The translations under genes and the position numbers were made by a program. Under the pieces are notes generated by a model. It had not been told where the DNA came from. It ran no database searches and saw nothing but the letters and a program-made list of their open reading frames with translations. Positions 1-61,342 of a stretch of 64,000 bases of DNA are shown piece by piece. How positions within the stretch are numbered: the first letter of the stretch is position 1; every line of letters begins with the position of its first letter. Origin of the DNA: Chiloscyllium plagiosum (Eukaryota); the NCBI RefSeq assembly GCF_004010195.1, contig NC_057718.1, positions 463,568 through 527,567 of the forward strand, in the 5' to 3' direction.

Positions 1-500
1 AGGATGAAGGACCCGATACCCAGCATGAGCAAAACCAATGTAGTGTACAAAATCCCATGCAAGGACTGCACAAAACACTACATAGGACAAACAGGAAGAC
101 AGCTAACGATCCGCATCCATGAACACCAACTAGCCACGAAACGATACGACCAGCTATCCTTAGTAGCCACACATGCAGATGACAAGCAACATGAATTCGA
201 CTGGGACAACATTACTATTATAGGACAAGCCAAACAGAGGCCAGGGAATTCCTAGAGGCACAGCACTCATCCACAGATTCTATCAATAAGCACATTGACC
301 TGGACCCAATATACCGGCCACTGCAACGGACAGCTAGAACTGACAACCGGAAGCGGCAGGTACAAATCACTATAAATACCGGAGGAAAGATCACAGAACG
401 CTTCACAGGAGGCTCCCAAGCACTGAGGATGTCACGTAGACAGGGGGCGAAATGTCTGCAGCTTAAATTCCCAGCTCGGCGAACAGAACCACCACAACTA
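1..500 (+). mobile_element. Penelope-like element 3' end (GIY-YIG endonuclease remnant plus pseudo-LTR)
   Basis: VVYKIPCKDCTKHYIGQTGRQLTIRIHEH GIY-YIG motif, frameshifted at its C-terminus, followed by a hammerhead motif. Confidence 0.9.
420..459 (+). ncRNA. Minimal type I hammerhead ribozyme motif (Penelope pseudo-LTR)
   Basis: gca-CTGAGGA-tgtc...ggc-GAAA-tg-TC-tgc; stem I gca/tgc. Confidence 0.7.
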
Positions 501-665
501 AGCATGTCCCAGTCAATATAAGGGAACCTGTTTTTATGTTCCTACTGTGCTATCAAATGACTCTTAAAATCACCAGTGTGTTTCCTTTGATGTACAATCC
601 CTCCATGAGCATTCATATTATCATGACTGACCACAACATCCTCTTTCTTTCCTAGTCCCACCTAC

Positions 666-762
666 CATTAGCATGAACATGGCTGGAATCCACAGCAACA
701 TCCCCCATGTCCCTCCGTAACTGCTCCAGCTGCTCCTCTTTCTTCTTCACCTCTGCCTCAGC
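666..762 (-). CDS. GPN1: GPN1 exon 12 (97 nt); remaining exons not seen in the window
   Basis: AEAEVKKKEEQLEQLRRDMGDVAVDSSHVHAN; ttccag/gtaggt. Confidence 0.9.
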
Positions 763-859
763 CTGGAACACAGCAGAACAACATGGATGAAGCAGGCTGA
801 GCAAGGGGGCCAGAGTGAAGGTACTGGGTCCTGTTCTCTCTGTCGAACAATGCACTCAC

Positions 860-899
860 CAGATCCTGTCGCAGTCTCTCATAATGTGGTCGATATTCA
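860..899 (-). CDS. GPN1: GPN1 exon 11 (40 nt)
   Basis: EYRPHYERLRQDL; ccccacag/gtgagt. Confidence 0.94.
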
Positions 900-2792: not shown

Positions 2793-3095
2793 ACAAAAAC
2801 AGAAATTGCTGGAAAAGCTCAGCAGGTCAGGAGAGAAATCAGAGTTAACCTTTCAGGTTGACTGACCCTTCCTCAGAACACAATAGATTACATCAAAAAG
2901 GTGCAATGCTGGAAAAGCCCATCCAGTCAGGCAGCATCCGAGGAGGAGGGTCAACATTTCAAGCATAAGCTCTTCATCAGGAATGTGAAGACTCTCCTGC
3001 TCCTCGGATGCAGCCTGACCAGCTGTGCTTTTCCAGCACCACACTTTTTGACTCTGATCTCCAGCATCTGCAGTCCTCACTTTCTCCTATACAAC
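2793..3095. mobile_element. Composite Penelope pseudo-LTR insertion (two related families, inverted arms)
   Basis: Two degenerate minus-strand hammerhead cores; flanked by agattgagga at 2783-2792 and 3096-3105. Confidence 0.7.
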
Positions 3096-4039
3096 AGATT
3101 GAGGATTGGTTAACTAATAGAAGTCAAAGAATTGGAAATGGGGTGGGGGGGGGGGGGGGGGGGCATTTTCAAAAGGCAGCCTGTAACTATTAGTCATGAA
3201 AGGACACTTTGCTTGGAGCAGCAGTGGGACCCGGGCAGCAGCAGGTCTGTTTCACTATAATCTGTAACTTTATGGTTTGACATATTCCTCACATTACCAT
3301 GATCAAGTCAGGGTCAGTCCTTTTCTTCAACAAGTGCAGAAGGTGGGGCATAGACTCTAAACATGCAAGGCCGACATAGTGAAGCTACAAAACAAACCAC
3401 TACACAGGCTAAACAGCAAAGGCAGGAAGTTACAGAAATAGGGAAATAATCCCAGAACAATGGATCAGATCAAAGACCTGTCACATCTAGTTATGACGGT
3501 TGCATTTCATGGAGGAGCATGCTCAAGGTGTTGAACTGCCTTTTCCTGCTCCTAGTCCTTACCTACCTACCTAACCCTGATTGATGGTCAATAATTCAGT
3601 GACCTACTGGAAGAGTAAACTCCATGATCATCCCATCCTTAATAATGGTGTAGGCCCTGCACAATACAGAAGGTAAAACTAAAGCATTTCCATCCAGCTT
3701 TAACCAGAAATATAAAGTGAGTGACCTATTTTGGCTTCCCAGTATCACAGACACCAGTTTCCAGCCAACGCGATATGCACTGCATGATATATAAAAAAAA
3801 GACAGTTGAAGGCACAGGGTACTGAAAAGCCTGTGGATCCCAAAAATATTCAGGTAATAATACAAACAATTTGTGCTTCAGAACTAGCCACATCCCTAGA
3901 AAAGCTGCTTCACTGTATCTTTAGGAACGGCATTTACCTGGCAATATGAAAAACTGCCCATTTATGTTCTGTACAAAAAGCTGAACAAATTCAATCTATC
4001 TAATTCGCATCCTATTAGTCAAAGTTTGAACATCAGTAA

Positions 4040-5020: not shown

Positions 5021-5389
5021 GAGGAGTGACATTATGGAGGCCTGAACTCACGGGGAAACTTTGTGAAACTCTCCACCGGCTTGAATGATGCCAACCACCC
5101 TCTTAATTACCAATTTATATTTAGGGACATAGACTTTGGGTTTCCTTTTGTTGGCTGATGTTCTCATATTCTCTCTGCCCTTCAGCTCTCTGTTCTTTTC
5201 TGTATGCATCGCGGCTCATGACTATCATGAACCCAACAGTTATGATAAGTTAGTTCTAGAGAATGACGAGAAAACAGAGAGTCTGAACATAACTTCCAAT
5301 TGACATGAAGTGAGACAGAATAAAATTGGAGATAAGGAGGGTATAACGGAGAAGGATTCAGGGTGTGCTCGAATTTGCAGGCAATTTAC

Positions 5390-5536
5390 CCGGAGCTGAC
5401 TGTAGAACTCATCCAGGACAAGACTCATGGAACGGGTCAGATTACTGGCAAAAGTCGTCTCCTGGTTCAGTGCATCCTGAAAAGTTTCAAAATCTTTCAT
5501 CCACTCCACGGCAAAGGAATGATCAACAATATCAAT
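5390..5536 (-). CDS. GPN1: GPN1 exon 9 (147 nt)
   Basis: [49 protein letters not shown]; ttag/gtaaat. Confidence 0.97.
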
Positions 5537-5538: not shown

Positions 5539-6795
5539 AAAGTCACAGGAACAAGGTAATGATCAGTGTACAGTCAAAGCAACTGGGTAATGTCCGTGTA
5601 AAATCACAGCAACAAGGTAACGATCAGAGTATAGAAACAAGGTAATGATCAGCGTCCAGTCACAGGAACAGGATAATGATCACAGGACAGTCACAGGAAC
5701 AGGATAATGAGCAGTATCCAGTCACAGGAGCAGGGTAATGATCACAGGAACAGGGTAATGAGCAGCATCCAGTCACAGGAACACGGTAACGATCACAGGA
5801 CAGTCACAGGAATACGGTAATGATCACAGGACAGTCACAGGAACAGGATAACGAACAGCGTCCAGACACAGGAACAGGGTAATGATCACAGGAACAGGGT
5901 AATGAACAGCGTCCAGTCACAGGAACATGGTAACAATCACAGGACAGTCACAGGAACATGGTATCGATCATAGGACAGTCACAGGAATACGGTAATGATC
6001 ACAGGACAGTCGCAGGAACTGGGTAATGATCAGTGTCCAGTCACAGGAACAGGGGAATGATCACAGGACAGTCACAGGAACAGGGTAATGATCAGCGTCC
6101 AGTCACAGGAACAGGGTAATGATCACAGGACAGTCACAGGAACAGGGGAATGATCAGCGTCCAGACACAGGAATAGGATAATGATCACAGGACAGTCACA
6201 GGAACAGGATAATGAGCAGTATCCAGTCACAGGAGCAGGGTAATGATCACAGGAACAGGGTAATGAGCAGCGTTCAGTCACAGGAACACGGTAACGATCA
6301 CAGGACAGTCACAGGAACAGGATAATGATCACAGGACAGTCACAGGAACAGGTTAACGAACAGCGTCCAGACACAGGAACAGGATAATGGTCACAGGAAC
6401 AGGATAATGAGCAGTATTCAGTCACAGGAGCAGGGTAATGATCACAGGAACAGGGTAATGAGCAGTGTTCAGTCACAGGAACACGGTAACGATCACAGGA
6501 CAGTCACAGGAATACGGTAATGATCAGTGCACAGTCACAGGAACATGGTAATGATCACAGGACAGTCACAGGAACTGGGTAATGATCAGTGTCCAGTCAC
6601 AGGAACCGGGTAATGATCAGTGTCCAGTCACAGGAACCGGGGAATGAGCAGTGTCCAGTCACAGGAACAGGTTAATGATCAGTGCACAGTCACAGGAACA
6701 GGGTAATGATCAGTGCACAGTCACAGGAACAGGGTAATGATCAGTGTAAATGTCACAGGTGCAAGGTCATGATCAGTGTACAGTCACAGCAACTG
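5539..6795. repeat. Intronic minisatellite, about 31-bp unit with 20-bp variants
   Basis: agtcacaggaacagggtaatgatcagcgtcc repeated about 40 times, degenerate. Confidence 0.95.
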
Positions 6796-7977
6796 GATAT
6801 CTCCTGCATTAAAAAAGACCAGGAGGCTCCAGGCATAACAAACCGCTTGTTCAGATGTTAATTTTCCCACTCATCACATTTCCAACAACTGCATGCAGTG
6901 GCTACACAGCTCCCTCCCCTTACATCACTCCCGAATCCAATCTCCACATGACGATCACTGCTTAACCTGTCCTCACCCATACCCTGAACTTTTCTCCATA
7001 TCCTTTCAGCTCATTTTTTTCAAAAACCACTCATATCCTCAACCCCAATTAACATTTTGCATGTCCGTCAAGTATTTCTCTGCACTGTCCCATACGTTTC
7101 TACTTACCGGAAAGGTTAGATGCACAGTGAAACTCAACTTGTGTTATCCCAACAAATATTCCCAGGACAAGAACAGAACTGTTCAGGTATACCTGTAAAG
7201 CTCCCTCAACACTGTAACTATCCCCGCGCAGTACTGTTTGATAGGCAAAGAGTAAAGTTCTGTCTACTCTTTTAAAGTCAAAGTAAAACTACCTTGACAC
7301 TGGCCCCATTCCCAGGGACAGCACGTGGTTAGACAGATAAGAACCAGGAGCAGGAGTTCACAATTCAGCCCCTCGAGCCACAGATTCACAACCCTTTGGA
7401 AGTCATTCTTCCTCATCTCTGTTTTAAATCTGCCACCCTTTCTCCTCAAACTATGACCTCACATTCTAGGTTACCCCATGCATCCTCTCAATGTCTACTT
7501 TGTCAATCTCCTTCAGATATAGGTCTCAGTTAGATTTTGTTTCATTATTCTAAACTCCAGCAAGAATAGTCCTAAAATGCTGACTTTCTGCCCAAAGCAA
7601 ACCCCTCCTCTCTGGAATTAATCGAGTGAACTCCTCTGACTTGTCTCCAACGCAATTACATCCCTCCCCAAGAAAGGTGACCAGAGTTGTAAGCAATACT
7701 CCAGCCGGCTGGATAATTGAAGGGACATTTCCCCAGTTTTATTCTTTAAGCAATAAATAACAAACCCCCTGCTGCCTTCCTTATTACCAGCTGTATCTGC
7801 ATAATAGTTCTCTCTGATTAACATATGAGGACACCCAGATCCCTCTGCACCAAAGCACTCTGATGTTTCTCTACACTTAGATAATAAGCTGCCTTTCTAT
7901 TCTCCAATTCAAATGAATAACTTTGCATTTATCCACATTAAACTCAAGAATATAGAATAAAGCTCCCTCTATATTGT

Positions 7978-8090
7978 TTATGCCCGAAACGTCGATTCTC
8001 CTGTTCCCTGGATGCTGCCTGACCTGCTGCGCTGTTCCAGCAACACATTTTCAGCTCTGATCTCCAGCATCTGCAGACCTCACTTTCTCT
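7978..8090 (+). mobile_element. Short Penelope pseudo-LTR insertion
   Basis: gcccgaaacgtcg...ctgcagacctcactttc; 14-bp TSD tccctctatattgt (7964-7977, 8091-8104). Confidence 0.8.
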
Positions 8091-8408
8091 TCCCTCTATA
8101 TTGTCCCCACCAAACACTTCCAGCCTGGGTACAACATTCAGCTAGATACCCAATAAAGTTCCCCATACACTCTGACTAAATGTGGCCAAGATCCACCTTT
8201 GAAAGATCAGTACAAATACAAGTCAGTATTTCCTGCAACCAAGCCCAGCCATTGCACATCCTGAGTAACTGGACTGGGACTACCTTGGACCTAATTACTT
8301 TACAGCCCCTAGGTGATTTTTATTCAGTTGGACACATCTGAACATAGATCATTGGAGTGCAACGTCACTGTGTGATCCTTATATTGTCCCAACCTAAGTG
8401 ATTCTTAC

Positions 8409-9159: not shown

Positions 9160-12100
9160 GAGGCACACAGAATAGAAACAGGCCCTTTGGTCCATCACAT
9201 CTGTGCTGACTAACAAACACCAAACAACAGTAATTCCATTTACCTGCACTTGGTCTGTAGCCTATCATGTCCTGCAATTTTAAGTCAGTGGTGCTGGAAG
9301 AGCACAGCAATTCAGGCAGCATCCGAGGACAGGCAAAATCGACGTTTCGGGCAAAAGCCCTTCATCAGGAAACTGAGGCTTTTGCCCGAAACGTCGATTT
9401 TGCCTGTCCTCAGATGCTGCCTGAATTGCTGTGCTCTTCCAGCACCACTGATCCAGAATCTGGTTTCCAGCATCTGCAGTCATTGTTTTTACCTCTGCAA
9501 TTTTAAGTGCTCATCCAGATGTTTCTGAAATGTTGGGACAGTACTAGCTGGGTTAGCTATGGGGAATACAGGGTTGCAGGAATTGCGTAGAGTGGAGTGT
9601 CTGGGTGAGGTACTCTTCAGGAGAGTTGGTGGGGACTCGATAGGCCAAATGGCCTGTTTTCACACTGTAGGGATTCTATGATTCTACCACCCTCTCATGC
9701 AGCACATTCGTTATTTCTATCACCGTCTGGGTGAATTTTCTCTCTCTTCATATCTCCTCAAAGCCAGTTGCTCCTCACCATAAACTTATGCCGTCTGAAA
9801 CATCTGCCATGAGGAAGAGACTCTCATGACTTAGTCTGTCTCATAACTTTGGATACCTCAATCAGAACCCCCTCAGCCTCCCGTCATAACTGAGACTTTT
9901 CATCCAAAGCAACATCCTGGTTAATCTCCTCTGCACCACCTCCAGTGCAATCGCATCTTTCCAACAATGCAGCGAGCGTAACTGTACTCAATATTCCATC
10001 TGTGCCCTAACCAAGGTTTTATCAAGTTGTAATAGGACTTCCCTGTTCCTATAGTCTATGCCCTGGTTAATGAAGGCAAATATCTCATATGCCATCTCCC
10101 TGTGCTGACATCTTCAGGGATCTAAGGACCTGTACACCAAGGTCCCTTTGCTCCTCAGTACTCTCTAGGAACCTACCATTCATTGTGGATATCCTTCCCT
10201 TATTACACCTCCCAAAATACAGGTTTAAACTGTATCATTGCTCTGCCCAAATTACCAGCTGATCAATATCAGACTGGAGCCTGAGACCATCCTCCTCACT
10301 ATCAACACCACCACCAATTTTCATATCATCTGCAAACTTACTAATTATACCTGTGACATCCATATCCAAGTTGTTATTGTACATAACAAACAGCAAGGGT
10401 CAAGGGTCCCAGCACTGATCCCTGTGGTACATCTTGATGGTCACAGACTTCCAATTACAATGACAACCCTCTACCATCACTCTTTACTTCTTATTTATAA
10501 GCTAGTTTTGGATCCAGTTAGCCGACATGCCTTGCATCCCATGGGCTCTTGTCGTTTGCACCAGCTTTCCATGTGAGACCTTGTCAAAAGCCAACATGAA
10601 GTCCATATAAACCACATCAACTGTGCTACCCTCATCAACATAGTTAGTCACCTCTTCAAAAAACTCAATTCAATTAATCAGACAGGATCCCCTTTGAACA
10701 AATCCATGCTGACTATCCCTGATCAATCTCTGCATTTCAAAATACTGATTTATCTTGTCCTTCAGAATTTTTTTCCAACAATATCCTTACCACTGATGCC
10801 AGATTAACTGCTCTGTAATTACCTGGTCTATCCTTGCTGCCCTTCTTCAGCAAAGCTACCCTCCAGTCAGCTGGCACTTCACCCACGGCCAACGAGGTAT
10901 TAAGTATCTCTGCCAGGTCAGCAGGAATCTCTTCTCTTGCCTTCCTGGGATATACTTCATCAGGCCCTGGGTATTTGTGCACCTGTATGCCTACTAACAT
11001 ATCTAATACCTCCTCCTTATTAACCGTAACATGTTCCAGAATCTCACCGTCCCAAATGACATTTCCACTGACAATACGTCTCTCTCCTCTGTGAATTCAG
11101 ATGAGAAGTTCAGTTAAGACCTCACCTATCTCCACTGGCTCCATGCACAGATTGCCCTTTTGGTTTCTAATCGGTTCCACCATTTTCCTGGTAATCCTCT
11201 TACTCTTAATCTACCTTTAAAAAGCCTTGAGGTTTTTCTTGATCTCATTTCTAAAATACATTTTGCCCTCTAAATTTATTTTTTAAACAACGCCCTGCCT
11301 GGTATGTTTGCTCATTTCCCTTTAGCAAACTCGCGATCTCCCTTGACATTCAGGGTTCCCTGCACTTCATGTCCTTGCCCTTCACTCTTACAGAAACACA
11401 CTGACTCATCTCTTGGGGGAACTACCTACATTGGCACAAAAAGGCTTCCTTGGATGCATTTAAAAAATTGCATCTGATTCTTTCACACTAAGGCAATCCT
11501 AATTAATGTTAGCAAAGTTGAAGTCCCCTCAAACTGGAACCCTATTTCTCTCACACCTTTCCGCTTACATATCTGCTACCTTACCTCCCTCTGATTATTG
11601 GGAGGCCTGTATTATAATCCCAGCAAGGTAACTGCCCCTTTGCTTATGTCTAAGCTTTACCTCGATGGCCTCATTTGATGACTCTTCTGCAACATCCGCC
11701 CTCATTACTGCAGTAGTGGTTTCCTTTATCAATACCTCACTCACTTACTTGCTCACTACTCCACGTGAAACTACTGTCCCCTGGAATGTTAAGCTGTCAG
11801 TCCTGTCCTTTCTTCAACCATAACTCAGCGATTGCAACAATATCATATTCCAACATGCTGATTAACACTAAGTTCATCTGCCTTGCTAATCAAGTTCCTT
11901 GCATTCAGATAGATAAGATTTAGTTTTCTACACTTATCAAATAGCTTACCCTGCCTATGATTTCTCTGCTTGCTGAACTGTACTGGCATTTCTTCACAAC
12001 CGAGTGAGTCTGAATTTATATTTCCTCTATGCTCCATTCCCCATCAAATCAGCTTAAAACTTCCCCATCAGCATGAGCAAATTCCCAGCAAGGAAACTGG

Positions 12101-12520: not shown

Positions 12521-13099
12521 GTGATTGCTGGCTGTTCACCCTCCCCCTTCTAGATGTTCTGCAGCTGCTACTGAACTGGCCAGAAGTGAGATAACAGAGA
12601 TTGAAATAAATTGAAAGGAAGTATTTAAGATAAAAAGATGGACAGTGTTGAGATCTGACAGAATACACACACGGATCCTATGGAAAATGGAAGAAAGACC
12701 CAGAAGTTGTACCTTGTTTTGTTGATAAATATGAGCTCTGTCACATGCAGATCAGAAAGGACAATTCAACTTGTGCAATTCTCACTTAATTACCACTCTG
12801 CCATGGTAGGATTTGAACTCAGGTTCCCAGAACATTACCTGGATCTGGATGAACAGACCAGTGATCACTTGGCCATCACCTGCCCTAATATACAATATCA
12901 AATCCTAACTGTAAGATTTTGTCCAATTTACAATTGTTACCAAATCCCATTAGAGCTTTCTTTGGTTCTCAATTATTCATTATCACTTCTATTTCACAAC
13001 GATATGAAAACATGGACACAGGTGCCTCTCCAGCGACACCCACATCACTGGAGAGCATGGGGACCAGCTCCTTCCCCGGTACACAGCTTGGGAACATAC

Positions 13100-13194
13100 C
13101 TGCATGCATACAGCATGTTAGACATGAAGGTGACTGGGTTCGTGCTGCGTGAGGTGTCCATCACATAGACAACAACTGTGGAGAAGGTGGAAGC
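13100..13194 (-). CDS. GPN1: GPN1 exon 7 (95 nt)
   Basis: [31 protein letters not shown](S); cacag/gtatgt. Confidence 0.97.
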
Positions 13195-16902: not shown

Positions 16903-17111
16903 AGGTAAAAACAATGACTGCAGATGCTGGAAACCAGATTCTGGATCAGTGGTGCTGGATTGCACAGGATCTCAGTGAATTGAACTGTAAACCATCAGCG
17001 AGGTAAAAACAATGACTGCAGATGAAGGGCTTTTGCCCGAAACGTCGATTTCAAAGCTTTTCAGATGCTGCCTGAATTGCTGTGCTCTTCCAGCACCACT
17101 GATCCAGAATC
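16903..17111. mobile_element. Complex Penelope pseudo-LTR insertion
   Basis: 14-bp TSD catctaactcaata (16889-16902, 17112-17125); repeated inverted element ends. Confidence 0.8.
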
Positions 17112-17784
17112 CATCTAACTCAATAGCCTGTTCCTGCTTTCTCTCTATCCTCTTTGGATTCCTTTATCCCAAGTGCTTATATCAAATTCCTTTTTGAAAT
17201 TGGTGTGGCCTTGACAGCTGTCTGTGGCAGAGAATTCCACAAGATCACGCTCTCTGGGTGAAGAAATCTCTCCACCTTTCAGCCCTAAATGGTCAAACCC
17301 ATTTCCATAAACTGTGACCCACCCCAGTTCTGGACTCCCCTATCACATTTACCTTCAGTAACTGATGCATAAGGATACACAGGTCCATGAAACCATAAGG
17401 AATAGGAACAGGAGTAGGCTGATTGGCTCCATGACCCTGACTCCACCATTCAATAGGATCATGCTTGATCTAACACTCCTCACGTCTTTCCTGCTCATGA
17501 CCTTGATTCCCCTATTGATCAAGAAATTATCTCAGCCTTAAGAATACAAGGACTCTGTCCCCACAGTTCTCTGTGGCAAGGAGTTCCAAAGACCCACAAC
17601 CCTCAGAAGAAATCCCTCCTCACAGCACAGGGGAATGGCAAAACTCATCGATACTGTCTCCATCAAACACTCCCAGGATAGGGGTACAGCACATTTATAT
17701 GTATTGGGCTGTGGACAAATGGTACCACTGGTTGGACAAGAGCTGACGTGATCCACAAATTCCACGCCATGTTTTAATACTTAC

Positions 17785-17863
17785 CAAAGCTTCTGTGATG
17801 ATGGTTCCAGAAGCTGACCAGGTAAATACTTCAATCTGTCCAGGAGTATCTATCAGAACAAAC
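17785..17863 (-). CDS. GPN1: GPN1 exon 6 (79 nt)
   Basis: [26 protein letters not shown] (G3 DTPGQ motif); tttcag/gtaagt. Confidence 0.97.
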
Positions 17864-18274
17864 CTGAAAGAAATGAGGGGACAACACCCCCTAATTAATC
17901 AAAGGAGAGCAATCCCAGGTCTAGTCCCTGACATCACACATGTCCCTCAGTCATGTCCCTCTCCTCAGTTGAAGGGCAGCTGGGGGTGGACAACAAACAC
18001 TGGCCTTGCCAGAATATCCACATGGCACAAAAGAACAAAATAATGCACCTTTGAATAAAAGTTTAACAATGTATGAAGATGAGGTTTCAGTTCAATCCTT
18101 CACTGCCCAGAACAATACCCCAGCTGGAGATAAATCCTCATCTTTCATACTTCTGGTCTATTTATAAAGGCAAGGATTTCTGTTACATCTTTGTTTGGAG
18201 CTACTGTCAGGAAATGTTAATCAAATAAAGTTGGGAATTGACTTCTGAAATAAAAGCAGAAAATGCTGGAAACA

Positions 18275-33790: not shown

Positions 33791-33808
33791 TTTCGCAGTC
33801 AGCAGTAC

Positions 33809-34450: not shown

Positions 34451-34454
34451 GATC

Positions 34455-43984: not shown

Positions 43985-45115
43985 ATATATTTCCCTCCCC
44001 ACCCCTTTCTGCCTTCCCCAAAGACTGTTCCCTCCGTGACTACCTGGTCAGGTCCACGCCCCCCCCTACAACCCACCCTCCCATCCTGGCACCTTCCCCT
44101 GNNNNNNNNNNNNNNNNNNNNNNNNNNNNNNNNNNNNNNNNNNNNNNNNNNNNNNNNNNNNNNNNNNNNNNNNNNNNNNNNNNNNNNNNNNNNNNNNNNN
44201 NNNNNNNNNNNNNNNNNNNNNNNNNNNNNNNNNNNNNNNNNNNNNNNNNNNNNNNNNNNNNNNNNNNNNNNNNNNNNNNNNNNNNNNNNNNNNNNNNNNN
44301 NNNNNNNNNNNNNNNNNNNNNNNNNNNNNNNNNNNNNNNNNNNNNNNNNNNNNNNNNNNNNNNNNNNNNNNNNNNNNNNNNNNNNNNNNNNNNNNNNNNN
44401 NNNNNNNNNNNNNNNNNNNNNNNNNNNNNNNNNNNNNNNNNNNNNNNNNNNNNNNNNNNNNNNNNNNNNNNNNNNNNNNNNNNNNNNNNNNNNNNNNNNN
44501 NNNNNNNNNNNNNNNNNNNNNNNNNNNNNNNNNNNNNNNNNNNNNNNNNNNNNNNNNNNNNNNNNNNNNNNNNNNNNNNNNNNNNNNNNNNNNNNNNNNN
44601 NNNNNNNNNNNNNNNNNNNNNNNNNNNNNNNNNNNNNNNNNNNNNCTAATCAAGATAAGGAGAAGTCACGTAGGGGCAGTCAGGTCACAAGTTAGGCAGA
44701 GAACTAGGGTGATTGGGTCATGTAGGAGTCGGGAGAGGTGACCTCACACAGCTCAGAGGTATAACTGTGTACTTGTTTCAATGCTCGTTGCTCATTTGCT
44801 TTAGCATTTGACGCCCCTTTTTGCAAGATCATAAAATAAATTGTCTTGTTTCCAGTTTTGGTGGTCTTGGCTAATTTTTGTTAAGTTTATTTCTAACATG
44901 ATCCACCCTCCCCTCTGACCTATCACCTCCATCCCCACCCCCATTCACCTATTGTACTCTATGATACTTTCTCCCCACCCCCACCCTCCTCTCATTTATC
45001 TTTCCACTCTGCAGGCACTCTGCCTCTATTCCTGATGAAGGGCATTTGCCTGAAACATCGATTTTCCTGCTCCTCGGATGCTGCTTGACCTGCTGTGCTT
45101 TTCCAGCACCACTCT
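43985..45115 (+). mobile_element. Penelope (Neptune-like) fragments on either side of an assembly gap
   Basis: DIFPSPPLSAFPKDCSLRDYLVRS resembles the PLE RT-to-GIY-YIG linker; C-rich 3' region and hammerhead pseudo-LTR at about 44900-45115; continuity across the gap not demonstrable. Confidence 0.6.
45028..45063 (+). ncRNA. Minimal hammerhead motif, slightly degenerate, in a Penelope 3' region
   Basis: attc-CTGATGA-agggcatttgcct-GAAA-ca-TC-gatt. Confidence 0.6.
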
Positions 45116-45499
45116 ACTCCAGCATTGATAGCCAATCCCTTGAAAAGGTGGGGGTGAGCTGCCTCCTTGAATCACACACTGCTGTAGAATCACAGATTTT
45201 CTGGGGATGGAGACAACATCTTGGGTTGAGAGTTGATTTGATAATTGGTGTTCCCCAAGGCTCTGTATTGGAGCCTCAACTTTACACTCCATTGACAGCG
45301 ACATAGGTGAAGGACCAGGAAGCTCTGTCTCTAGGGTTTTTGACTGCATGAGTTGATGTGGCACCATAAATATGGTGAGAGGAGGAAGCTGCAATGGGGA
45401 TACATTAAGGCAAATGGATAGCTGGGACTTGATATACAAATAAAGATCAACATTATTTCAAAATGGGGAGGAGCTAGAGATTGTGGGGAGCAGACTATA

Positions 45500-46820
45500 A
45501 GGCCAGCCTTAGTCAAGGACCCATAGGAGACTAATAGAGAAGGTTAAAAACTCATGGGACCCACGCTAACTTCACAAATCCTAAATTGGCCTAGTAGCAG
45601 GAGACAGAGGGTAAAAGTGGACAACTTATGTGACTGAAGGCTGGTGTGCAGCGGTGTATCACAGATGATCAGTGCTGGGCCCTTTATTGTTTGTGATATT
45701 CACAAATGATATAGATGGGAATGTTGGGGGAATGTTAAGTTTGTGGATAACACAAAGATTGACTGGGCAATCAACATTGAGGATAAAGGTCTTGGGTTAA
45801 AGATAATATAAACTTCCCAGAGGTCTGTATCCTATCACTAAGTCGCCCTTTATTGAAATGTGGAAATACCTTGACTCTGGCACAACCATGTTAGACTCAG
45901 CACCCGAGTATGAAAATCTCTGGCACTCATCCTTTTTTTCCTGTCAGCCAGGGCTCTCTAATTGGACCAGATTAACTGCCCCAGTTACAGAACTCATGTT
46001 CTGAGAGGTCCCAATGGGAAGCTCAGTCACAGATGGAATTTAACCCTGAGAAATGAGAGGGTCAGGCATTTCAGAAGAAGTAACAAAGGAGATTACAATT
46101 CATGTCAGGACACTAGGATGCTCAGAGGAAACAGGGTAATACTTATCCACACATCCCTGAGGGTGGTTCAACAGGTTAGCAGAGTAGTTAAGAAGGTTAC
46201 CTTTACTAGTCAAGACATAGACTATAAGAGCAGGGAGATGATGTTGGGGCAGGACAGGACATTGGTCAGGCCCCAGCTGGAGGACTGTGTGCAGTTCTGG
46301 TTCCCACACTACAGGAAGGATGGGATTGTACTGGAGGGGGTGTAGAGGAACTTCAGGATGGTCACTGGGATGGAACATTTCAGCGATGAAGAGAGGCTGG
46401 ATAACTCTGGTTTTCTTTAGATCAGAGGAGGTTGAGGGGGGACCTGATTATGAGGGGTATGGAATGTAGTGAATAGAAAGCAGCTGTTCCCCTGGGTTAA
46501 AGGTGAAAAGTGTAGCACTGGAAAAGCACAGCAGGTCAGGCAGCATCCAAGGAACAGCAGAGTCAGCGGATCAACATTCCTGATGAAGAGCTTATGCCTG
46601 AAATGTCGATTCTCCTGCTCCTCAGATGTTGCCTTACCTGCTGTGCTTTTCCAGCACCACACTCTCGATACTGATCTCTAGCATCTGCAGTCTGCACTTT
46701 CTCCCTTTAGTTAAAGGGTCAACGACCAGGGAGCATAATTTTAAAGTGAAAGGCAAGTGGTTTAGATGGGATTTGGGAAAGCATTTTTATCACCAGAGGG
46801 TGGTGAGGGTCTGGCATAGT
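45500..46820 (+). mobile_element. CR1 RT/3' fragments, interrupted
   Basis: LVRPQLEDCVQFWFPHYRKD. Confidence 0.8.
46504..46704. mobile_element. Inverted Penelope pseudo-LTR insertion within a CR1
   Basis: Inverted arms, CTGATGA...GAAA core at about 46580-46603, imperfect TSD ending gttaaagg. Confidence 0.75.
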
Positions 46821-47505: not shown

Positions 47506-47973
47506 AGTATTTTTTGCCTATCTCTAATTGCCCTTGAGAATGTGGTGAGCTGCCTTCATGAATCACTGCTGGCCATCTGCTGTAGGTTTACCCATAATAG
47601 CCATGAGGGACGGAATCCCAGGATTCTGAACCAGCCACAGTGAAGGAACGACAAAATATCTCCAAGTCAGGATGGGGAGTGGCTTGGAGGGGAACTTGCA
47701 GAGAGTGGTGTTTCCATGTATCTGCTGCCCTTTTCCTTCTAGATTGAAGTGGTCATGGATTTAGAAGTTGCTGTCTGAGGAACTTTGATGAATTTCTGCA
47801 GTGCCTCTTCCCTGTAACCCTTGGTGTTGCCTTACTAATTAAGTAAGTTCAGGCTGAACATGCGCTGTCCCCTACCGCTGTGCACTGAGACTTCCTTTTC
47901 AAATAATGTTCATTTTCAGTTCAGTTCAGTTTTTTTAATTGTTGATCTCTCACTGTACCCACTCTGTTTTTAG

Positions 47974-48257
47974 GGAATATCATTAAGAATGAGGTGCTGT
48001 ACCTGTCTGCGATTCACCCCATGTCTCTGGGCTGCCTGCTCCATGTTGAGCAACTACAGACGCTGCTGGACAACGTGATCCAGTTCAGCCACGAATGGCT
48101 GGACAAGAAGGTGAAAGGCAAAGGCTTAAAGTACCACATCTATCAGAGAGAGCAGTGCCCTCAGGGTCATGCTGTGGAGAGGGCAGACCTGGGAGCACCT
48201 CGTTGTCTTCAGCGGCCTACATGGTGGTGTCCTGTGTGCCAACCTGCAGTGCATTGA
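47974..48257 (+). CDS. NEIL2: NEIL2 last coding exon with CHCC zinc finger
   Basis: [19 protein letters not shown]...[11 protein letters not shown]...[13 protein letters not shown] then TGA; the four exons sum to 969 nt = 322 aa plus stop. Confidence 0.96.
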
Positions 48258-48389: not shown

Positions 48390-49794
48390 AATATACCTTC
48401 TGCAATCAGCCTAATCTTTTGTGGGGAGAAAGTGGAGAAAGTGAGGTCTGCAGATGCTGGACATCAGAGCTGAAAATGTGTTGCTAGAACAGCGCAGCAG
48501 GTCTTGTGGGGACATCTTTTAGCAAGGAGAGAGTGCATTTTGTGTCCAATTCTCTGTACAGTTGATGAGTTAAATATTGTGTTGTATCTGTTAGTATTTG
48601 AAGCAATTATTCAACTGGATTATTCACAATTTGACATTAGGAGAAATAGGTAGGGACTCTGAAACAGCAATTTTTTTTATACTTACACTTCTCGTTATCC
48701 CCTTGATGACCAGGCAGCAGAGGTTTAAGGCCACAGCAGAGGGAATGGGAGGAAAATGTTCACCCAGATTCCAGGTGGGAATCTGGAGCTCTCTGCAGAA
48801 CGCCGGCCCCCAACATTTACAAAGTATTTAGATGTGCACTTGTGGTGCCAAAGCGCACACGTCTATGGACCACGTGCTAGAAAATGGGTTTACAATAGTT
48901 AGGGAGGTGTTTTAGACTGTCACGGCTGTGATGGGCCTTTTTCTGTGCTGTCACTCAAATGAAAGGCAAACTCAATTTGAATGTGCGATTTCAACTCCAC
49001 AAGGGCTGTGTGGTGACGCATACATCTGTGTCAGGCAGGTAGAGAAGGATGACTATGTCTCTCCCCCTCGTTGGTTCCTTCACCATCTGCCGCAGACCCA
49101 GTCCAGCAGTTATGTCCTTTAGCGCCCGACCTGCTCGATCAGGTGGTAGATGTTGAAAGCCCCTGCCCAGAATCTATTCTGTGCCCTTGCCACCTAAGTG
49201 CTTCCTCCAAGTGTTATTCTGCATGTAGTTGTACTGATTGATCCGTTAAGGAGACGGTACATGGGTAAGGAAACTTCCTGCTGATTACCATGTTTGACAT
49301 GATACTGTGAGACTTCATGGATTCCAGAGTCAATGTTGTGGACTCTCAGAAAATCTCCCTCTTGACTGTATCTCACTGTGCCACCACCTTTGCTCTGTCT
49401 GTCCTGCAGCTGGTGACACTGCTGTTGTCTGGATCATTGTAGAGTATGACTCTGCTTGCATTGCCTTTCAGGGAGGAATGTGTGAGGGTAAGAATGTGGA
49501 CATAGAGTATTGAAATGAGAACAAAAAATGACAGCTCCTTATGTAGATAAAAATAGCCCTGGGATTGCAGGAACATTGGGGCAAGTCCACTGGAAGGTTT
49601 GCCATTTTTCAACTTGCAAGTGAAAGTAAATGTCATGCACTAACAGAATGTGTCATTGTTAATTCAAGACATCCTTATTATTAATTCAGGTTGTTTCCAG
49701 AGATGGTCAAATTTAAGTCTTTTGGGTGTTGCAGTTAAAATAATGCACCCTGGTTAGATCCAAAGAAGAGATATATCTGCACAATATTACAAAA

Positions 49795-54800: not shown

Positions 54801-55996
54801 TGATCAGCCTGAAAACTTCGGAGCTAAATGTTCACAACTACCCAGGAGGAGGGGAGCTGAAGACATCAAAACCACATCACCCTACATCCTGAAATGTAGA
54901 CAATGTTTCTGTTTGCAGCCAGAAAAACTCAATATCCACCTCCTGCTAAAGGTAAAGAGGGAAACTGAAGCTATGTAAAACTGTGAGAGAACTAAGCAGC
55001 AGGCTGTTGGGGATAGTCCCAGTAACTAAACCAATGGATCTGGCAGAATCTGTGTCGATCCTTATACAATTCAACACAGCAAGTGAATGCAAAGTTCATC
55101 CAATGATATCTGTGGATGAAATATCAGCAAAATTGAGAAAAGTTTAACCTTCATGAAGCTCAATTAAAATAGAACTGCTTGGAACGGTCCCTTGGTGAAA
55201 AGTTTCAGTTCCTCCTGACCTTTGTTAACTGATGATTGAAGGTTTTGTTTCAACAGAATGCTCTTTGGCATTACATCAGTGGCAGAGGTCTACATGAGCA
55301 TAACGTTAAGCATCTGAAGAGGACTTGATGGAGATTTATCTCACATGGATAATGTCCTGATCCATGGATCTGCTCAGACAGAACAAGACACTAGAGTGTG
55401 AGCTATGCTGTGATGTCTACAGGACATGGGACATACACTTCACTGATGCATAACATTCAATTTTTAGCTGTGTGTGTTGGGGAATTTTAGAAGTGGGTTA
55501 GAGTTTTAATTAGTAAAGTTATGTATTGAATAATTATTTAACTGTAATTACAATCTTTTTAGCTTTCTTGATTATTGTTCATTATAGACAATGGAAAGCT
55601 GTCCCTTGAATCTCAAATATAGGATGCAGACTTGGAGTACTGTGAGCAGATCCCACATTTGGAAAGACATATAGTATGCAAATTAGGCCTGTTTGCTCTT
55701 GAATTTAGGAGGTTAAGGAATGATATGATTGAAATCTTCAAGCAAGAGACTTTTTTCAGTTGGACTTTAATGAAGAAACAGATCCCAGAGTAATACAACA
55801 TGAATAAACCCCCTGGGCAGCAGAAACAGAAGCAGGAGGTGATGTACGATTAACATCACTGCAAGTACAACATTTACACTGAGGCAAGACTGCTCTCAAG
55901 GAGAAAGTGAGGACTGCAGATGCTGGAGATCAGAGCTGGAAATGTGTTGCTGGAAAAGCGCAGCAGGTCAGGCAGCATCCAGGGAACAGGAGAATC

Positions 55997-56362: not shown

Positions 56363-56542
56363 ACTTTCAAATTTAGAAAATTTAAAATCAAAAGTGTGAT
56401 CCTTTCTTCTCTAATGTCCAGATCCAAATTACTGCAGAAGCAGAGAAGTGTAGTCCTTGCTTTGGTTGAGAGCAGTCTTGAAAATGTGTTGCTGGAAAAG
56501 CGCAGCAGGTCAGGCAGCATTTCGGGCATAAGCCCTTCTTCA

Positions 56543-58935
56543 GGAGGGTCAGTGCTGTGGGAGGGTCAGTGCTGAGGGACGGTCAGTGTTGAGGGAGTGG
56601 GCGCTGTGGGAGGGTCAGTGCTGAGGGACGGTCAGTGTTGAGGGAGTGGGCGCTGTGGGAGGGTCAGTGCTGAGGGACGGTCAGTGTTGAGGGAGTGGGC
56701 GCTGTGGGAGGGTCAGTGCTGAGGGACGGTCAGTGTTGAGGGAGTGGGCGCTGTGGGAGGGTCAGTGCTGAGGGACGGTCAGTGTTGAGGGAGTGGGCGC
56801 TGTGGGAGGGTCAGTGCTGAGGGACGGTCAGTGTTGAGGGAGTGGGCGCTGTGGGAGGGTCAGTGCTGAGGGACGGTCAGTGTTGAGGGAGTGGGCGCTG
56901 TGGGAGGGTCAGTGCTGAGGGACGGTCAGTGTTGAGGGAGTGGGCGCTGTGGGAGGGTCAGTGCTGAGGGACGGTCAGTGTTGAGGGAGTGGGCGCTGTG
57001 GGAGGGTCAGTGCTGAGGGAGCAGGTGCTGAGGGAGGGTCAGTGTTGAGGGAGGGCCAGCGCTGAGGGAGAGTCAGCGCTGAGGGAGGGTCAGTGCTGAG
57101 GGAGGGTCAGTGCTGAGGGAGGGCCAGCGCTGAGGGAGAGTCAGCGCTGAGGGAGGGTCAGTGCTGAGGGAGGGTCAGTGCTGAGGGAGGGCCAGCGCTG
57201 AGGGAGAGTCAGCGCTGAGGGAGGGTCAGTGCTGAGGGAGGGTCAGTGCTGAGGGAGGGCCAGCGCTGAGGGAGAGTCAGCGCTGAGGGAGGGTCAGTGC
57301 TGAGGGAGGGTCAGTGCTGAGGGAGGGCCAGCGCTGAGGGAGAGTCAGCGCTGAGGGAGGGTCAGTGCTGAGGGAGGGTCAGTGCTGAGGGAGGGCCAGC
57401 GCTGAGGGAGAGTCAGCGCTGAGGGAGGGTCAGTGCTGAGGGAGGGTCAGTGCTGAGGGAGGGCCAGCGCTGAGGGAGAGTCAGCGCTGAGGGAGGGTCA
57501 GTGCTGAGGGAGGGTCAGTGCTGAGGGAGGGCCAGCGCTGAGGGAGAGTCAGCGCTGAGGGAGGGTCAGTGCTGAGGGAGGGTCAGTGCTGAGGGAGGGC
57601 CAGCGCTGAGGGAGAGTCAGCGCTGAGGGAGGGTCAGTGCTGAGGGAGGGTCAGTGCTGAGGGAGGGCCAGCGCTGAGGGAGAGTCAGCGCTGAGGGAGG
57701 GTCAGTGCTGAGGGAGGGTCAGTGCTGAGGGAGGGCCAGCGCTGAGGGAGAGTCAGCGCTGAGGGAGGGTCAGTGCTGAGGGAGGGTCAGTGCTGAGGGA
57801 GGGCCAGCGCTGAGGGAGAGTCAGCGCTGAGGGAGGGTCAGTGCTGAGGGAGGGTCAGTGCTGAGGGAGGGCCAGCGCTGAGGGAGAGTCAGCGCTGAGG
57901 GAGGGTCAGTGCTGAGGGAGGGTCAGTGCTGAGGGAGGGCCAGCGCTGAGGGAGAGTCAGCGCTGAGGGAGGGTCAGTGCTGAGGGAGGGTCAGTGCTGA
58001 GGGAGGGCCAGCGCTGAGGGAGAGTCAGCGCTGAGGGAGGGTCAGTGCTGAGGGAGGGTCAGTGCTGAGGGAGGGCCAGCGCTGAGGGAGAGTCAGCGCT
58101 GAGGGAGGGTCAGTGCTGAGGGAGGGTCAGTGCTGAGGGAGGGCCAGCGCTGAGGGAGAGTCAGCGCTGAGGGAGGGTCAGTGCTGAGGGAGGGTCAGTG
58201 CTGAGGGAGGGCCAGCGCTGAGGGAGAGTCAGCGCTGAGGGAGGGTCAGTGCTGAGGGAGGGTCAGTGCTGAGGGAGGGCCAGCGCTGAGGGAGAGTCAG
58301 CGCTGAGGGAGGGTCAGTGCTGAGGGAGGGTCAGTGCTGAGGGAGGGCCAGCGCTGAGGGAGAGTCAGCGCTGAGGGAGGGTCAGTGCTGAGGGAGGGTC
58401 AGTGCTGAGGGAGGGCCAGCGCTGAGGGAGAGTCAGCGCTGAGGGAGGGTCAGTGCTGAGGGAGGGTCAGTGCTGAGGGAGGGCCAGCGCTGAGGGAGAG
58501 TCAGCGCTGAGGGAGGGTCAGTGCTGAGGGAGGGTCAGTGCTGAGGGAGGGCCAGCGCTGAGGGAGAGTCAGCGCTGAGGGAGGGTCAGTGCTGAGGGAG
58601 GGTCAGTGCTGAGGGAGGGCCAGCGCTGAGGGAGAGTCAGCGCTGAGGGAGGGTCAGTGCTGAGGGAGGGTCAGTGCTGAGGGAGGGCCAGCGCTGAGGG
58701 AGAGTCAGCGCTGAGGGAGGGTCAGTGCTGAGGGAGGGTCAGTGCTGAGGGAGGGCCAGCGCTGAGGGAGAGTCAGCGCTGAGGGAGGGTCAGTGCTGAG
58801 GGAGGGTCAGTGCTGAGGGAGGGCCAGCGCTGAGGGAGAGTCAGCGCTGAGGGAGGGTCAGTGCTGAGGGAGGGTCAGTGCTGAGGGAGGGCCAGCGCTG
58901 AGGGAGAGTCAGCGCTGAGGGAGGGTCAGTGCTGA
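56543..58935. repeat. G-rich satellite; 17-bp monomer in 49-bp then 68-bp higher-order repeats
   Basis: Monomer gagggagggtcagtgct; period 49 up to about 57020; period 68 thereafter (lines 57061 and 58081 identical, 1020 = 15 x 68). Confidence 0.97.
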
Positions 58936-59427
58936 GAATCTAAAAAGTGAGATAACGGAGTTTTACATAAATTCATGCAGTTTTTGAGCTCAGAGTTCTA
59001 CATGAATGTATGTGGTTTTTGAGCAAAGTACAATGTAATTCTGAAAGTACCAAAAAAATTCACCACACAAAATATATGTGTCCATGTGGGTCTTTGTCTG
59101 TGTGTGTATCTGTCTGGGGTGGGGTGTGTGTGTGTGTGTGTGTAGGGTGTCTTAAGTCTGAGAGGGGGTGCATGTGTCTATAAGGGTGTGTGTGGGTGTC
59201 TGTGTGCGCGTCTGTGTATATGTGTGTCCGTGTGTATGCGTGTATAGGAGTGCGTGTGTGTGTGTGTGTAGGAGTATCTGTGTGTGTGTATAGTGCAATG
59301 GTGGTCACCTGTAATGTGACATGAACCCAAGGTCCCGGTTGAGGCCCTCCCTATGGGTACCGAACTTAGCTATCAGCCTCTGCTCGGCCACTTTTCGCTG
59401 CTGCCTGGTGTTGTGTGATTTTTAACA
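58936..59427 (-). mobile_element. Penelope (Neptune-like) 3' fragment with CA-rich microsatellite UTR
   Basis: Minus strand QRKVAEQRLIAKFGTHREGLNRDLGFMSHYR* resembles the GIY-YIG C-terminus; ends in the same gtgttgtgtgatttttaac as the 59730 element. Confidence 0.75.
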
Positions 59428-59729
59428 ATTGGGTTATGTTTAATTTAGTGATGGAAAGAGATAGGTATCTACGGCAGGGCAAGAGTTATTGCTGGGGGAA
59501 AGGCAATTATGATGTGTTTGGGTATGATTAATGATCCATAGGATGGGGAAGGAAACTGCAGGGGATGGGCACAATTGAAATATGGAGCTTACTCAAGGAA
59601 CAGCTACTGTGTGTCCTTGGTAAGTATCTACTGGTCAGGCAGGGAGGAAGTTGTCGAGTGAGGGAGCTGTGATTTACTAAGGAAGTTGGATCTCTGATCA
59701 AGAGGAAGAAGAAGACTTATATTCGGATG

Positions 59730-59912
59730 ATGTGGAGGTGTCGGTGTTGGACTGGGGTGTACAAAGTTAAAAATCACACAACACCAGGTTATAGTCCAAC
59801 AGGTTTAATTGGAAGCACCAGCACAACCACCTGATGAAGGAGCGTTGCTCCGAAAGCTAGTGCTTCCAATTAAACCTGTTGGACTATAACCTGGTGTTGT
59901 GTGATTTTTAAC
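59730..59912. mobile_element. Hairpin-shaped Penelope pseudo-LTR insertion (family 2) in a CR1
   Basis: 54-bp inverted repeat (59765-59818 / 59860-59913); TSD tat(a/g)ttcggatg. Confidence 0.85.
59828..59862 (+). ncRNA. Minimal hammerhead ribozyme motif, second family
   Basis: cac-CTGATGA-a-ggagc-gtt-gctcc-GAAA-gc-TA-gtg; palindromic AGCT at stem III. Confidence 0.8.
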
Positions 59913-61342
59913 TATGTTCGGATGGGATGTGAAGGCTCAGTTAGGGCAATTGAGATTTACAAGTTAGCCAGGAAAGACCTAAAGAGAGAGCTAAGAAGAG
60001 CCAGGAGGGGAGATGAGAAGTTGTTGGCAGATAGAATCAAGGAAAACCCTAAGGCTTTCTATCGGTATATCAGGAATAAAAGAATGACCAGAGAAAGATT
60101 AGGGCCAATCAAGGACAGCAGTGGGAAGTTGTGCATGGACTTCGAGGCAATGGGGAAGCGTTAAATAAATACTTTTTGTCAGTGTTCACACTGGAATAAG
60201 ACAATGTTGTCGAGGAGAATACTGAGATACAGGCTATAGACTAGATGGGATTGAGGTTCACAAGGAGGGGGTGTTAGCAATTCTGGGAAGTGTAAACATA
60301 GGTAAGTCCCTTGGTCCAGATGGGATTTATCCTCGGATTCTCTGGGAAGCCATGGAGGAGATTGCCAAGCCTTTGGCGTTGATTTTTATATCATCATTGT
60401 CTACAGGAATGGTGCCAGAAGACTGGAGGATAGCAAATGTGGTTCCCCTGTTCAAGAAGGGGAGTAGAGACAATCCTGGTAATTATAGACCAGTGAGAGC
60501 CTTACTTCAGTTGTTGGTAAAGTGTTGGAAAAGGTGATAAGAGATAGGATTTATAATCATCTAGAGAGGAATAATTAAGGACAGTCAACATTGTTTTGTG
60601 AAAGGTAGGTCGTGCCTCACAAACCTTATTGGGTTCTTTGAGAAGGTGACCAAACAGGTGGATGAGGGTAAAGTGGTTGATGTGGTGTATATGGATTTCA
60701 GTAAGGCGTTTGATAAGGTTCCCCATGGTAGGCTATTGCACAAAATAAGGAGAAAAGGATTTGGGTTTGATTTAATGGTTTGGATATAATTTGGTTTGCT
60801 GAAAGAAGACAGAGGTGGTGGTTGATGGGAAATATTCATCCTGGAGTTCAGGTACTAGTGGGGTACTGCAAGGATCTGTTTTGCGTCCACTGTTTGTCAT
60901 TTTTATGAATGAGGGCTTGGAAGGATGGGTTAGTAAATTTGCATTTTATACTAAGGTCTGTGGAGTTGTGGATAGTGATGAAGGATGTTGTAGGTTACAG
61001 AGGGACATAGATAAGCTGCAGAGCTGGGTTGAGAGGTAGCAAATGGCGTTTAATGTGGAAAAGTGTGAGGTGATTCAGTTTGGAAGAAGCAACAGGAATG
61101 CAGAGTCCTGGGCTAATGGTAAGATTCTTGGGAGTGTAGATGAGCAGAGAGATCTCGGTGTCCAGGTACACAGATCCCTGAAAGTTGCCACCCAGTTTGA
61201 TAGAGTTGTTAAGAAGGCATATGGTATGTGAGCTTTTATTGGTAGAGGGATTGAGTCCGGAACCATGAGGTCATGCTGCAGCTGTACAAAACTCTGGTGT
61301 AGCCACATTTGGAGTATTGTGCACAGTTCTGGTTATAGGAAG

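Follow-up and report, generated by a model that had tools for sequence, protein, structure and literature searches.

What are the short inserts with hammerhead ribozyme motifs that lie scattered through a 64,000-nucleotide (nt) stretch of the Chiloscyllium plagiosum genome (contig NC_057718.1, positions 463,568 to 527,567, below called the window)? The original prediction, made from the sequence of the window alone, described them as a dense population of ribozyme-sized pieces from at least three Penelope families, possibly mobilised as a non-autonomous, retrozyme-like class. Our analysis makes it probable that the inserts arose by retrotransposition, as copies of the non-coding module at the 3' end of Penelope-like elements (PLEs) that bear an endonuclease. 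The kind is already known: Cervera & De la Pena 2014 (PMC4209133) described minimal hammerheads in the terminal repeats of metazoan PLEs. What is noteworthy is the abundance of the inserts and the sharply defined 5' start of the short copies. The function of the minimal PLE hammerheads, known since 2014, is still unsettled, and this genome is an unusually large natural data set, with many near-identical young copies. Its inserts are single, head-to-head or, rarely, head-to-tail, a target duplication flanks each of them, and where the RNA template ends and how the PLE reverse transcriptase jumps between templates can be read from them directly.

The pattern CTGANGA-N(6-30)-GAAA occurs at 15 sites in the window, against a mean of 6.9 after shuffling, and none of 100 shuffles reaches 15; a motif-rich stretch had been claimed and is indeed what we find. 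The sites are homologous repeat copies and not chance motifs, and the expectation by chance is therefore not the real question for this count. Most copies read CTGANGA, one bulged base, stem II and GAAA-NN-UH, and they belong to three motif families. Family A has 22 arms at 16 places (found by comparing the window with itself and by aligning it locally to a reference copy from the genome), family B has one foldback, that is, a sense arm with an inverted arm beside it, and one 26-nt fragment, and family C has one copy, which holds the site at 423 and shares the layout, with a long loop II. Of 91 family-A arms collected, 29 had indels or N or lacked their 5' part and were set aside; a covariance model trained on the other 62, once aligned, finds 17 window sites at E<=3.2e-4. 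Eleven sites had been listed in the original prediction. Eight of them are clear minimal-hammerhead motifs, five on the minus strand (2957-2980, 9345-9368, 23440-23463, 32486-32509 and 42600-42623) and three on the plus strand (45032-45055, 46580-46603 and 59831-59855); the site at 423-456 (+) is family C, and those at 2851-2876 (-) and 35703-35729 (+) are decayed family A. Overlooked were the cores at 56520-56543 (-), 22265-22326 (+) and 17007-17068 (+), a second decayed core at 32516-32577 (+), and the inverted arms that make foldbacks of many inserts.

The origin of family A is revealed by its longer copies. Searched through the 3.56 Gb genome, family-A copies that extend upstream of the ribozyme share up to ~1.4 kb, and the long forms retain about 170, 220, 415, 560, 1,020, 1,260 and 1,390 bp. 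Three loci, L065, L066 and L072, share a decayed open reading frame (ORF) upstream of the core, and at L065 the core stands at position 4152, ~170-200 nt past the end of the ORF, with the 3' module after it. The reverse-transcriptase motifs of this ORF include YIDD, it also has an endonuclease block of the GIY-YIG type, and over 339-359 nt of its end the DNA of L072 is 80% identical to that of L065 and L066. The nearest database proteins are uncharacterised shark proteins (75% identity), and longer relatives of 688-900 aa have RVT_1 and, at the C-terminal end, a GIY-YIG domain above the Pfam cut-off (P0008 23.6 bits, P0014 22.8 bits). A reverse transcriptase and GIY-YIG ORF upstream of the module is the architecture of a PLE, which identifies family A, as judged from its sequence, as the 3' end of an endonuclease-bearing (EN+) PLE. 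The Penelope origin that had been proposed for the inserts is thereby upheld for family A, and the claim of three Penelope families becomes one of three motif families with linkage to a PLE ORF demonstrated for A. The structural features of PLE insertions, 5' truncation, an inverted copy, a tail at one end and target duplications of variable length, are all found here.

The link came from the longer copies only, as the ORFs of the first 1.26-kb long forms had no Pfam match. The Pfam GIY-YIG model was of no use for locating PLEs across the whole genome, with 1 match among 150 scored candidates. A 158-aa piece of the decayed reverse transcriptase has at least 18,012 candidate genomic sites, of which 150 were scored, many of them with long stop-free frames.

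The abundance is seen from two exact patterns, both with 0 matches in the reversed control. A 28-base pattern for the intact core of one family has 82,714 sites in the genome, and a 21-base tail end has 86,154. Two sites in the window fit the 28-base pattern, where ~1.5 are expected per 64 kb, and the "dense population" is thus a property of the genome and not of the locus; the window is motif-rich, but typical. Many of the listed genomic sites are identical and have kept their CpGs, which suggests recent activity. For genome annotation this means that a large share of the "unknown" short repeats and hairpins of sharks are PLE ends, some of which weakly match Rfam microRNA families.

The copies in the window are given below. 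Reference positions count the C of CTGANGA as +1, and the predicted cut is after +28.

337-500, plus strand: family C copy with a minimal-hammerhead-like motif at 423-456; two further copies are at loci L020 and L027.
2807-2876, minus strand: decayed family-A arm with a degenerate core at 2851-2876 (score 22; covariance model 10.4 bits, E 0.69).
2898-3108: family-A foldback; minus arm 2898-2985 (reference -5 to +87) with core 2957-2980, plus arm 2978-3108 (reference +19 to +148) with the tail.
7978-8091, plus strand: single family-A arm, 5'-truncated in loop II (reference +13), with a 13-bp target duplication at 7965-7977 / 8092-8104.
9286-9494: family-A foldback with an intact core at 9345-9368 (-) and a 14-bp target duplication at 9272-9285 / 9495-9508.
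16903-17111: family-A foldback with a partial inverted arm, a damaged core at ~17007-17068 (+) and a 14-bp target duplication.
22273-22408, plus strand: single full-length mini family-A copy (reference -4 to +132) with a decayed core; it served as query in the genome searches.
23341-23542: family-A foldback with core 23440-23463 (-) and a 10-bp target duplication.
32412-32642: head-to-head family-A dimer, both arms from reference -5/-6; the core at 32486-32509 (-) is intact and that of the plus arm decayed.
35703-35780, plus strand: badly decayed family-A-like copy in which the pairing of stem II is lost.
42536-42660, minus strand: family-A copy of subfamily A4 that extends upstream of the ribozyme (reference -28), with core 42600-42623.
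42920-42975, plus strand: short family-A 3' fragment (reference +26 to +81) with no core.
44932-45134, plus strand: long-form family-A copy with 100 nt of PLE 3' untranslated region (UTR) upstream of core 45032-45055.
46443-46702: family-A foldback with core 46580-46603 (+).
48436-48507, minus strand: family-A 3' fragment (reference +52 to +123).
55899-55996, minus strand: family-A fragment that starts at reference +29, the predicted cleavage site; the sole convincing case of this in the window.
56439-56625, minus strand: family-A (A4) long form with core 56520-56543 and an internal deletion after GAAA; it adjoins a 2.4-kb minisatellite.
59404-59429, plus strand: family-B 3'-terminal fragment of 26 nt.
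59730-59912: family-B foldback with core 59831-59855 (+) at the hairpin tip, the tail on the inverted arm only, and a 12-bp target duplication with 1 mismatch.

The mobile unit is larger than the ribozyme-sized piece that had been proposed. In family A it is a module of ~135-140 nt that begins at about -4 (3-5 nt upstream of the core) and consists of a minimal type I hammerhead followed by about 100-110 nt of 3' sequence with two alternative 3' ends, at about +82 to +95 or about +122 to +142, ~35-40 nt apart. Runs of T4-5 stand upstream of these 3' ends. The 3' part is also self-complementary in its conserved portions, with GAUGCUG near +46 able to pair with CAGCAUC near +112 (22318-22390 and other family-A arms), and there is a small hairpin just before the inner 3' end, an arrangement reminiscent of the stem-loop found where the anole PLE has its start sites for reverse transcription.

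The hammerhead of family A has the core, one bulged A after A9, a stem II of 4 bp closed by a loop of 4 nt, GAAA, and no loop III. After GAAA comes A-C-G-U (helix III) and then the cleavage base, and this A-C-G-U can pair only between two molecules. The corresponding palindromic stretch at 15.2-16.2 reads A-G-C-U in family B and A-U-G-U in family C. Stem II was said to differ between families while staying paired, and this is the case: it is GGGC/GCCC or GAGC/GCUC in family A, while B has GGAGC/GCUCC and C has GUC..GAC. Inside family A one pair varies in a compensatory way between GC and AU. Among the 62 aligned arms the full core CUGANGA...GAAA...UH is intact in 31, with losses that stem mostly from decay of CpGs at G12 and the 15.2-16.2 pair, and the bulged A is kept in 97%. 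The pair G10.1-C11.1 is GC in 42 and GU in 13 arms, 10.2-11.2 is GC in 34, AU in 20 and unpaired in 5, and 15.2-16.2 is C-G in 26, with the products of CpG decay CA in 23 and UG in 10; the remaining variation is mostly CpG decay as well. Helix I of family B, read by eye, has 3 bp, a mismatch and 2 bp. In family C a U is bulged after A9, stem II has 3+1 bp and a long loop, GAAA-UGUC is present and helix I has 3 bp, and the core is kept in the window copy and at L020 and L027 apart from CpG decay.

Where the inserts start is the more unusual part of the picture. The original prediction had noted that ends distributed randomly with respect to the ribozyme would speak for ordinary truncation, and the ends are in fact non-random. 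We sampled 30 genomic family-A loci that were 3'-anchored, being found with the last 70 nt alone as query. Their sense arms start at -8 to -1 in 13 cases and at +2 to +8 in 6, the others at +34 (two), at -36 and -42, and far upstream in 7 long forms. Thus 19 of the 30 start no more than 8 nt from the first base of the core, and 19 of the 23 truncated arms start within one 17-nt window (binomial p 1e-18), with alignment end points that are good to a few bases only. The inner ends of the inverted arms fall at -7 to +8 in 11 of 13. DNA contigs from an independent run, placed on a long-form copy, have 352 loose ends at -4 and opposite-strand joints into -4 to +2. Few arms start at the predicted cut site, namely 1 of 22 in the window (55899-55996) and none of the 43 that were sampled, and no footprint of cleavage was found. 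Other arms that had been candidates for such a start have inner ends at +19 to +26 and keep parts of GAAA or helix III, and were rejected. In published PLE work, insertion in vitro did not depend on cleavage, and cleaved RNA was not found in vivo. In two unrelated families the short copies start where the ribozyme has its 5' edge and hardly ever at the cut site, which points to a structural or protein-binding role of the motif.

Three other explanations of the 5' boundary were considered and rejected. An initiator-type transcription start fits the initiator consensus in family A and not in family B, and the sequences upstream differ between subfamilies; a splice acceptor fits one subfamily only; and no RNA polymerase III or tRNA-derived head, of the kind found in short interspersed elements (SINEs), was seen, as ARAGORN gave 0 tRNA-like genes in the window.

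The discrete 5' boundary, the common inner ends and the inserts made from several templates are best explained by a short RNA with a defined 5' end. On this reading the PLE reverse transcriptase probably begins within the module, at one or the other of two sites, and copies as far as the 5' end of the RNA, which lies at the ribozyme's edge; the head-to-head inserts and the rare head-to-tail ones of several units would come from priming on both strands of the target or from template jumps where the RNA ends. The hammerhead would be a passenger within the module, and most genomic copies are presumably dead and incapable of cutting in cis, since there is hardly ever another sense copy close by. 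Beyond this we tentatively suggest, as a possibility on which we would not yet rely, that the short copies are faithful copies of a discrete RNA of ~140 nt, with the 5' end set by the folded hammerhead or a bound PLE protein and with the reverse-transcription starts in the 3' region. Protection of the RNA end by the folded motif or by such a protein is an idea that survives, and may be how the end is set. If this is true, the ~140-nt RNA could be trimmed from any transcript with a sense copy, host introns included, in the manner of intronic small nucleolar RNAs, which are processed back to where their protein-bound core begins. The module would then be a promoter-less, SINE-like parasite of the PLE machinery, which would explain copy numbers of the order of 10^5 or more, and the hammerhead would mainly be a structural 5' handle and not a cutter.

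Several observations weigh against what we propose, both the PLE origin and the discrete RNA. The Pfam GIY-YIG match in the linked ORF copies is sub-threshold (E 0.05), the ORF link is established for family A alone among the three families, and the ORF-bearing copies that we have seen are decayed and 5'-truncated, L066, walked in the 5' direction, at about position 2011. The Rfam hammerhead families (types I, II, III, HH9 and HH10) have 0 matches in the window at gathering score or E<=10, which is to be expected for motifs that lack helix III; the sole Rfam matches in the window are weak, microRNA-like and on foldbacks, and that at 2898-3108 gives just such hairpin matches. Helix I is poor in family A, with C-G, U-A, then U/U or U/C (paired in 5 of 62 arms), then A-U. 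Covariation over the whole structure of family A is modest, 0.190 against 0.166 in shuffled alignments (5 of 500 shuffles as high), paired cells make up 83.0% against 81.9%, and the signal rests essentially on one pair, the compensatory GC/AU pair 10.2-11.2; the covariation in the stems that had been named as a check is present there and slight elsewhere. In the unselected window sample the clustering of starts is weaker, with 7 of 22 at -8 to +8 (p = 2e-4). Finally, the RNA reads, which come from one poly(A) single-cell run unsuited to a non-adenylated RNA of 140 nt, have no pile-up of ends at the proposed RNA 5' end or elsewhere. They cover the short module on both strands at a depth of ~200-970, compared with ~1-30 upstream, tracking the ratio of DNA contig depth, and 97% of the module reads continue into unlike flanks. 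This coverage fits passive transcription inside longer RNAs.

The alternative that survives best, although we think it unlikely, is ordinary random 5' truncation of PLE insertions together with the usual inverted copies, with no discrete short RNA, and with the clustering of starts as an artefact of alignment, sampling or microhomology at the palindromic ribozyme sequences. It would account for the many 5' points of the long forms, which retain anything from about 170 to 1,390 bp, and for the 10 of the 22 window arm starts that spread between +10 and +62. In several foldbacks the inner junction falls in the self-complementary stem II, and single motifs have already been attributed to truncated PLEs (PMC4209133). 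The distribution in the 3'-anchored sample, however, is not that of random truncation, as next to the 19 starts in the 17-nt window the 250 nt upstream of it and the 50 nt downstream hold only 2 each. The same boundary is also present in the DNA contigs of the other run and in family B, the sequence of which is unrelated and the sense arms of which start at about -3 to -9. At four further loci, L053, L079, L073 and L074, the start at the boundary is fixed by target duplications, in the family-B locus L079 at -4.

A second alternative, the retrozyme-like class of the original prediction, would have tandem transcripts cut by the hammerheads to unit length, circularised, and copied by the PLE reverse transcriptase. 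The unit does have discrete ends, and head-to-tail junctions are real: the genome has 23 and the reversed control none, and in 9 of the 23 the spacer is 0-2 nt. A 2026 preprint (10.64898/2026.07.22.740005), as far as the part of it available to us goes, also ties animal retrozymes to the terminal repeats of PLEs. The 23 junctions stand against 86,154 exact tail ends, about 0.03%, and no tandem array of units is present in the window. Five of the seven junction loci that were fetched are moreover one composite, in which the tail of one subfamily is followed by the unit of another, and at L072 this junction sits in the PLE 3' UTR. The other two, L073 and L074, have two sense units inside a single target duplication, and as these units are just 74-79% alike they must come from two different templates in one event and not from rolling-circle copying. 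Added to this, starts at the cut site are as rare as stated above, and the motif is the minimal type of PLEs and not the canonical type I with loop-loop contacts by which the consulted part of PMC7229834 defines animal retrozymes. We consider a retrozyme-like origin very improbable.

The composite loci are of interest in their own right. L072 (G000:C32:24141450-24142250) and L068-L071 represent one PLE subfamily with two modules in its 3' UTR and with the same junction at 5 loci. The first of the modules is tail-like and A4-like, has no ribozyme and spans reference +45 to +135, and it is followed by a complete A2 ribozyme unit.

Seven of the inserts in the window are foldbacks, the head-to-head dimer at 32412-32642 and the family-B insert at 59730-59912 included. 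Target duplications of 10-14 bp enclose the whole foldback at 9286-9494, 16903-17111, 23341-23542 and 59730-59912, so that each foldback is one insertion event. Foldbacks make up 13 of the 30 family-A loci and 8 of 14 family-B loci that were picked regardless of the upstream sequence. The inverted arms of the family-A sample end at +82 to +95 in 12 of 13, and the sense arms at +122 to +142, which leaves the PLE tail, here of roughly 35 nt, on one arm only. The foldbacks could also be read as miniature inverted-repeat DNA transposons with a central loop that is hammerhead-like by accident, and for family B this has some appeal: the window foldback is a near-perfect hairpin of ~55 bp with the core at its tip (-108.4 kcal/mol, z = -16) and recurs with identical ends in 40 of the 40 best genomic matches. 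But the target duplications vary in length (10, 12, 13, 14 and 14 bp in the window), the arms are asymmetric, with an additional tail of 36-38 nt on exactly one arm in 8 of 8 family-B foldbacks, and the other family-B loci are long forms (4 of 14) and single arms (2 of 14). Since the arms of family A are in addition continuous with a PLE ORF, we give the transposon explanation hardly any credence.

The PLE copies of the window lie in and around two host genes, whose recognisable exons are the following.

31189-31287, 17779-17865, 13093-13194 and 5369-5536, minus strand: GPN1-like exons (Pfam ATP_bind_1).
47946-48254, plus strand: NEIL2-like exon (Pfam H2TH, sub-threshold).

Several cores had been described as sense to the pre-mRNAs of these genes. 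This is correct for 9345 (-) and 23440 (-), which lie between the minus-strand GPN1-like exons, while the arms at 7978, 17007 and 22273 are antisense; the cores at 45032 and 46580 are upstream of the NEIL2-like exon and on the same strand. Family-A arms occur on both strands in the span of the GPN1-like gene, and the about 20 copies of the window are far too few to test for an orientation bias. The least credible of all explanations is that such cores are working host ribozymes on GPN1 or NEIL2 pre-mRNA, for although 9345 (-) and 23440 (-) are intact and sense in GPN1-like introns, they are two among 82,714 sites, at average genomic density, they are monomers without helix III and with no second sense copy nearby, minimal PLE hammerheads cut poorly even as dimers (PMC4209133), and both cores are inside foldbacks where the motif would be sequestered in a long hairpin.

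Some other features of the window deserve mention. The minisatellite at 56543-58936 (2.4 kb, 68-nt period, 35.5 copies, 93% matches) adjoins the family-A copy at 56439-56625, and its unit is the reverse complement of a short repeat just 5' of the ribozyme in the subfamily of that copy. The array seems therefore to have grown from PLE 3' UTR sequence, and it is the cause of the peak in G+C (0.58) and GC skew at 56-60 kb. Another minisatellite, at 5541-6793 (31/62-nt, ~1.25 kb), is directly beside the GPN1-like exon at 5369-5536. Remains of other retroelements are present at 39169-40452 (+), where a 307-aa open frame comes after an endonuclease-reverse-transcriptase domain (Exo_endo_phos_2, E 7.6e-10), and at 27647-28258 (-), where RVT_1 matches weakly (E 0.002). 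The region separating the two host genes contains a G+C-rich stretch (33647-34582 and 35833-36306) with open frames on both strands and tandem repeats of 33-51 nt, and this stretch may be a shared promoter region.

Of the systems already described, the animal non-LTR (long terminal repeat) retrozymes are the more distant ones. As far as the consulted parts of Cervera & de la Pena 2020 (PMC7229834) and Li, Clavereau & Pollet 2026 tell, they resemble our inserts in being short, non-autonomous, hammerhead-bearing and related to PLE ends, and in having many solitary monomers. The same parts describe tandem arrays of ~150-450 bp units, mostly canonical type I hammerheads and circular RNA, whereas the ribozyme here is of the minimal type and tandems amount to ~0.03% of the tail ends.

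The likeness is much closer to the minimal hammerheads of PLEs (PMC4209133). They have the same core, an unpaired base between 9 and 10.1, the G10.1-C11.1 pair, a palindromic 15.2-16.2 stretch without loop III and a short helix I, and they occur in thousands of mostly solitary copies per genome with occasional pairs on opposite strands. The differences are that stem II has 4 bp in family A and mostly 6-8 bp there, and that helix I is weaker in family A than the 4-5 bp reported, although a variant in Drosophila virilis has a helix I of 2 bp. The 82,714 sites of one family are also about ten times the ~9,000 and ~4,000 given there for Xenopus and the coelacanth, and that study does not report a sharp 5' boundary for short copies.

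Insertions of EN+ PLEs have been described by Craig et al. 2021 (PMC8557442) and Frangieh et al. 2024 (PMC11167929), and the sections of these papers that we could consult report insertions that are heavily 5'-truncated, with a truncated, inverted copy next to the sense one and an optional tail of 30-40 bp at one end, as well as two adjacent internal start sites for reverse transcription and, in vitro, cleavage and extension of both target strands. Going by those sections, partial tandems are very rare among the short copies here, unlike in the EN+ insertions, where they make up pseudo-LTRs flanking a full-length ORF, and the position relative to the ORF is another one, since the hammerhead lies ~170-200 nt downstream of the ORF end here and the ORF starts inside stem II in anole Poseidon. 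The inserts of the window otherwise share with them the truncation, the inverted copy, the tail at one end and the hammerhead near the 3' end.

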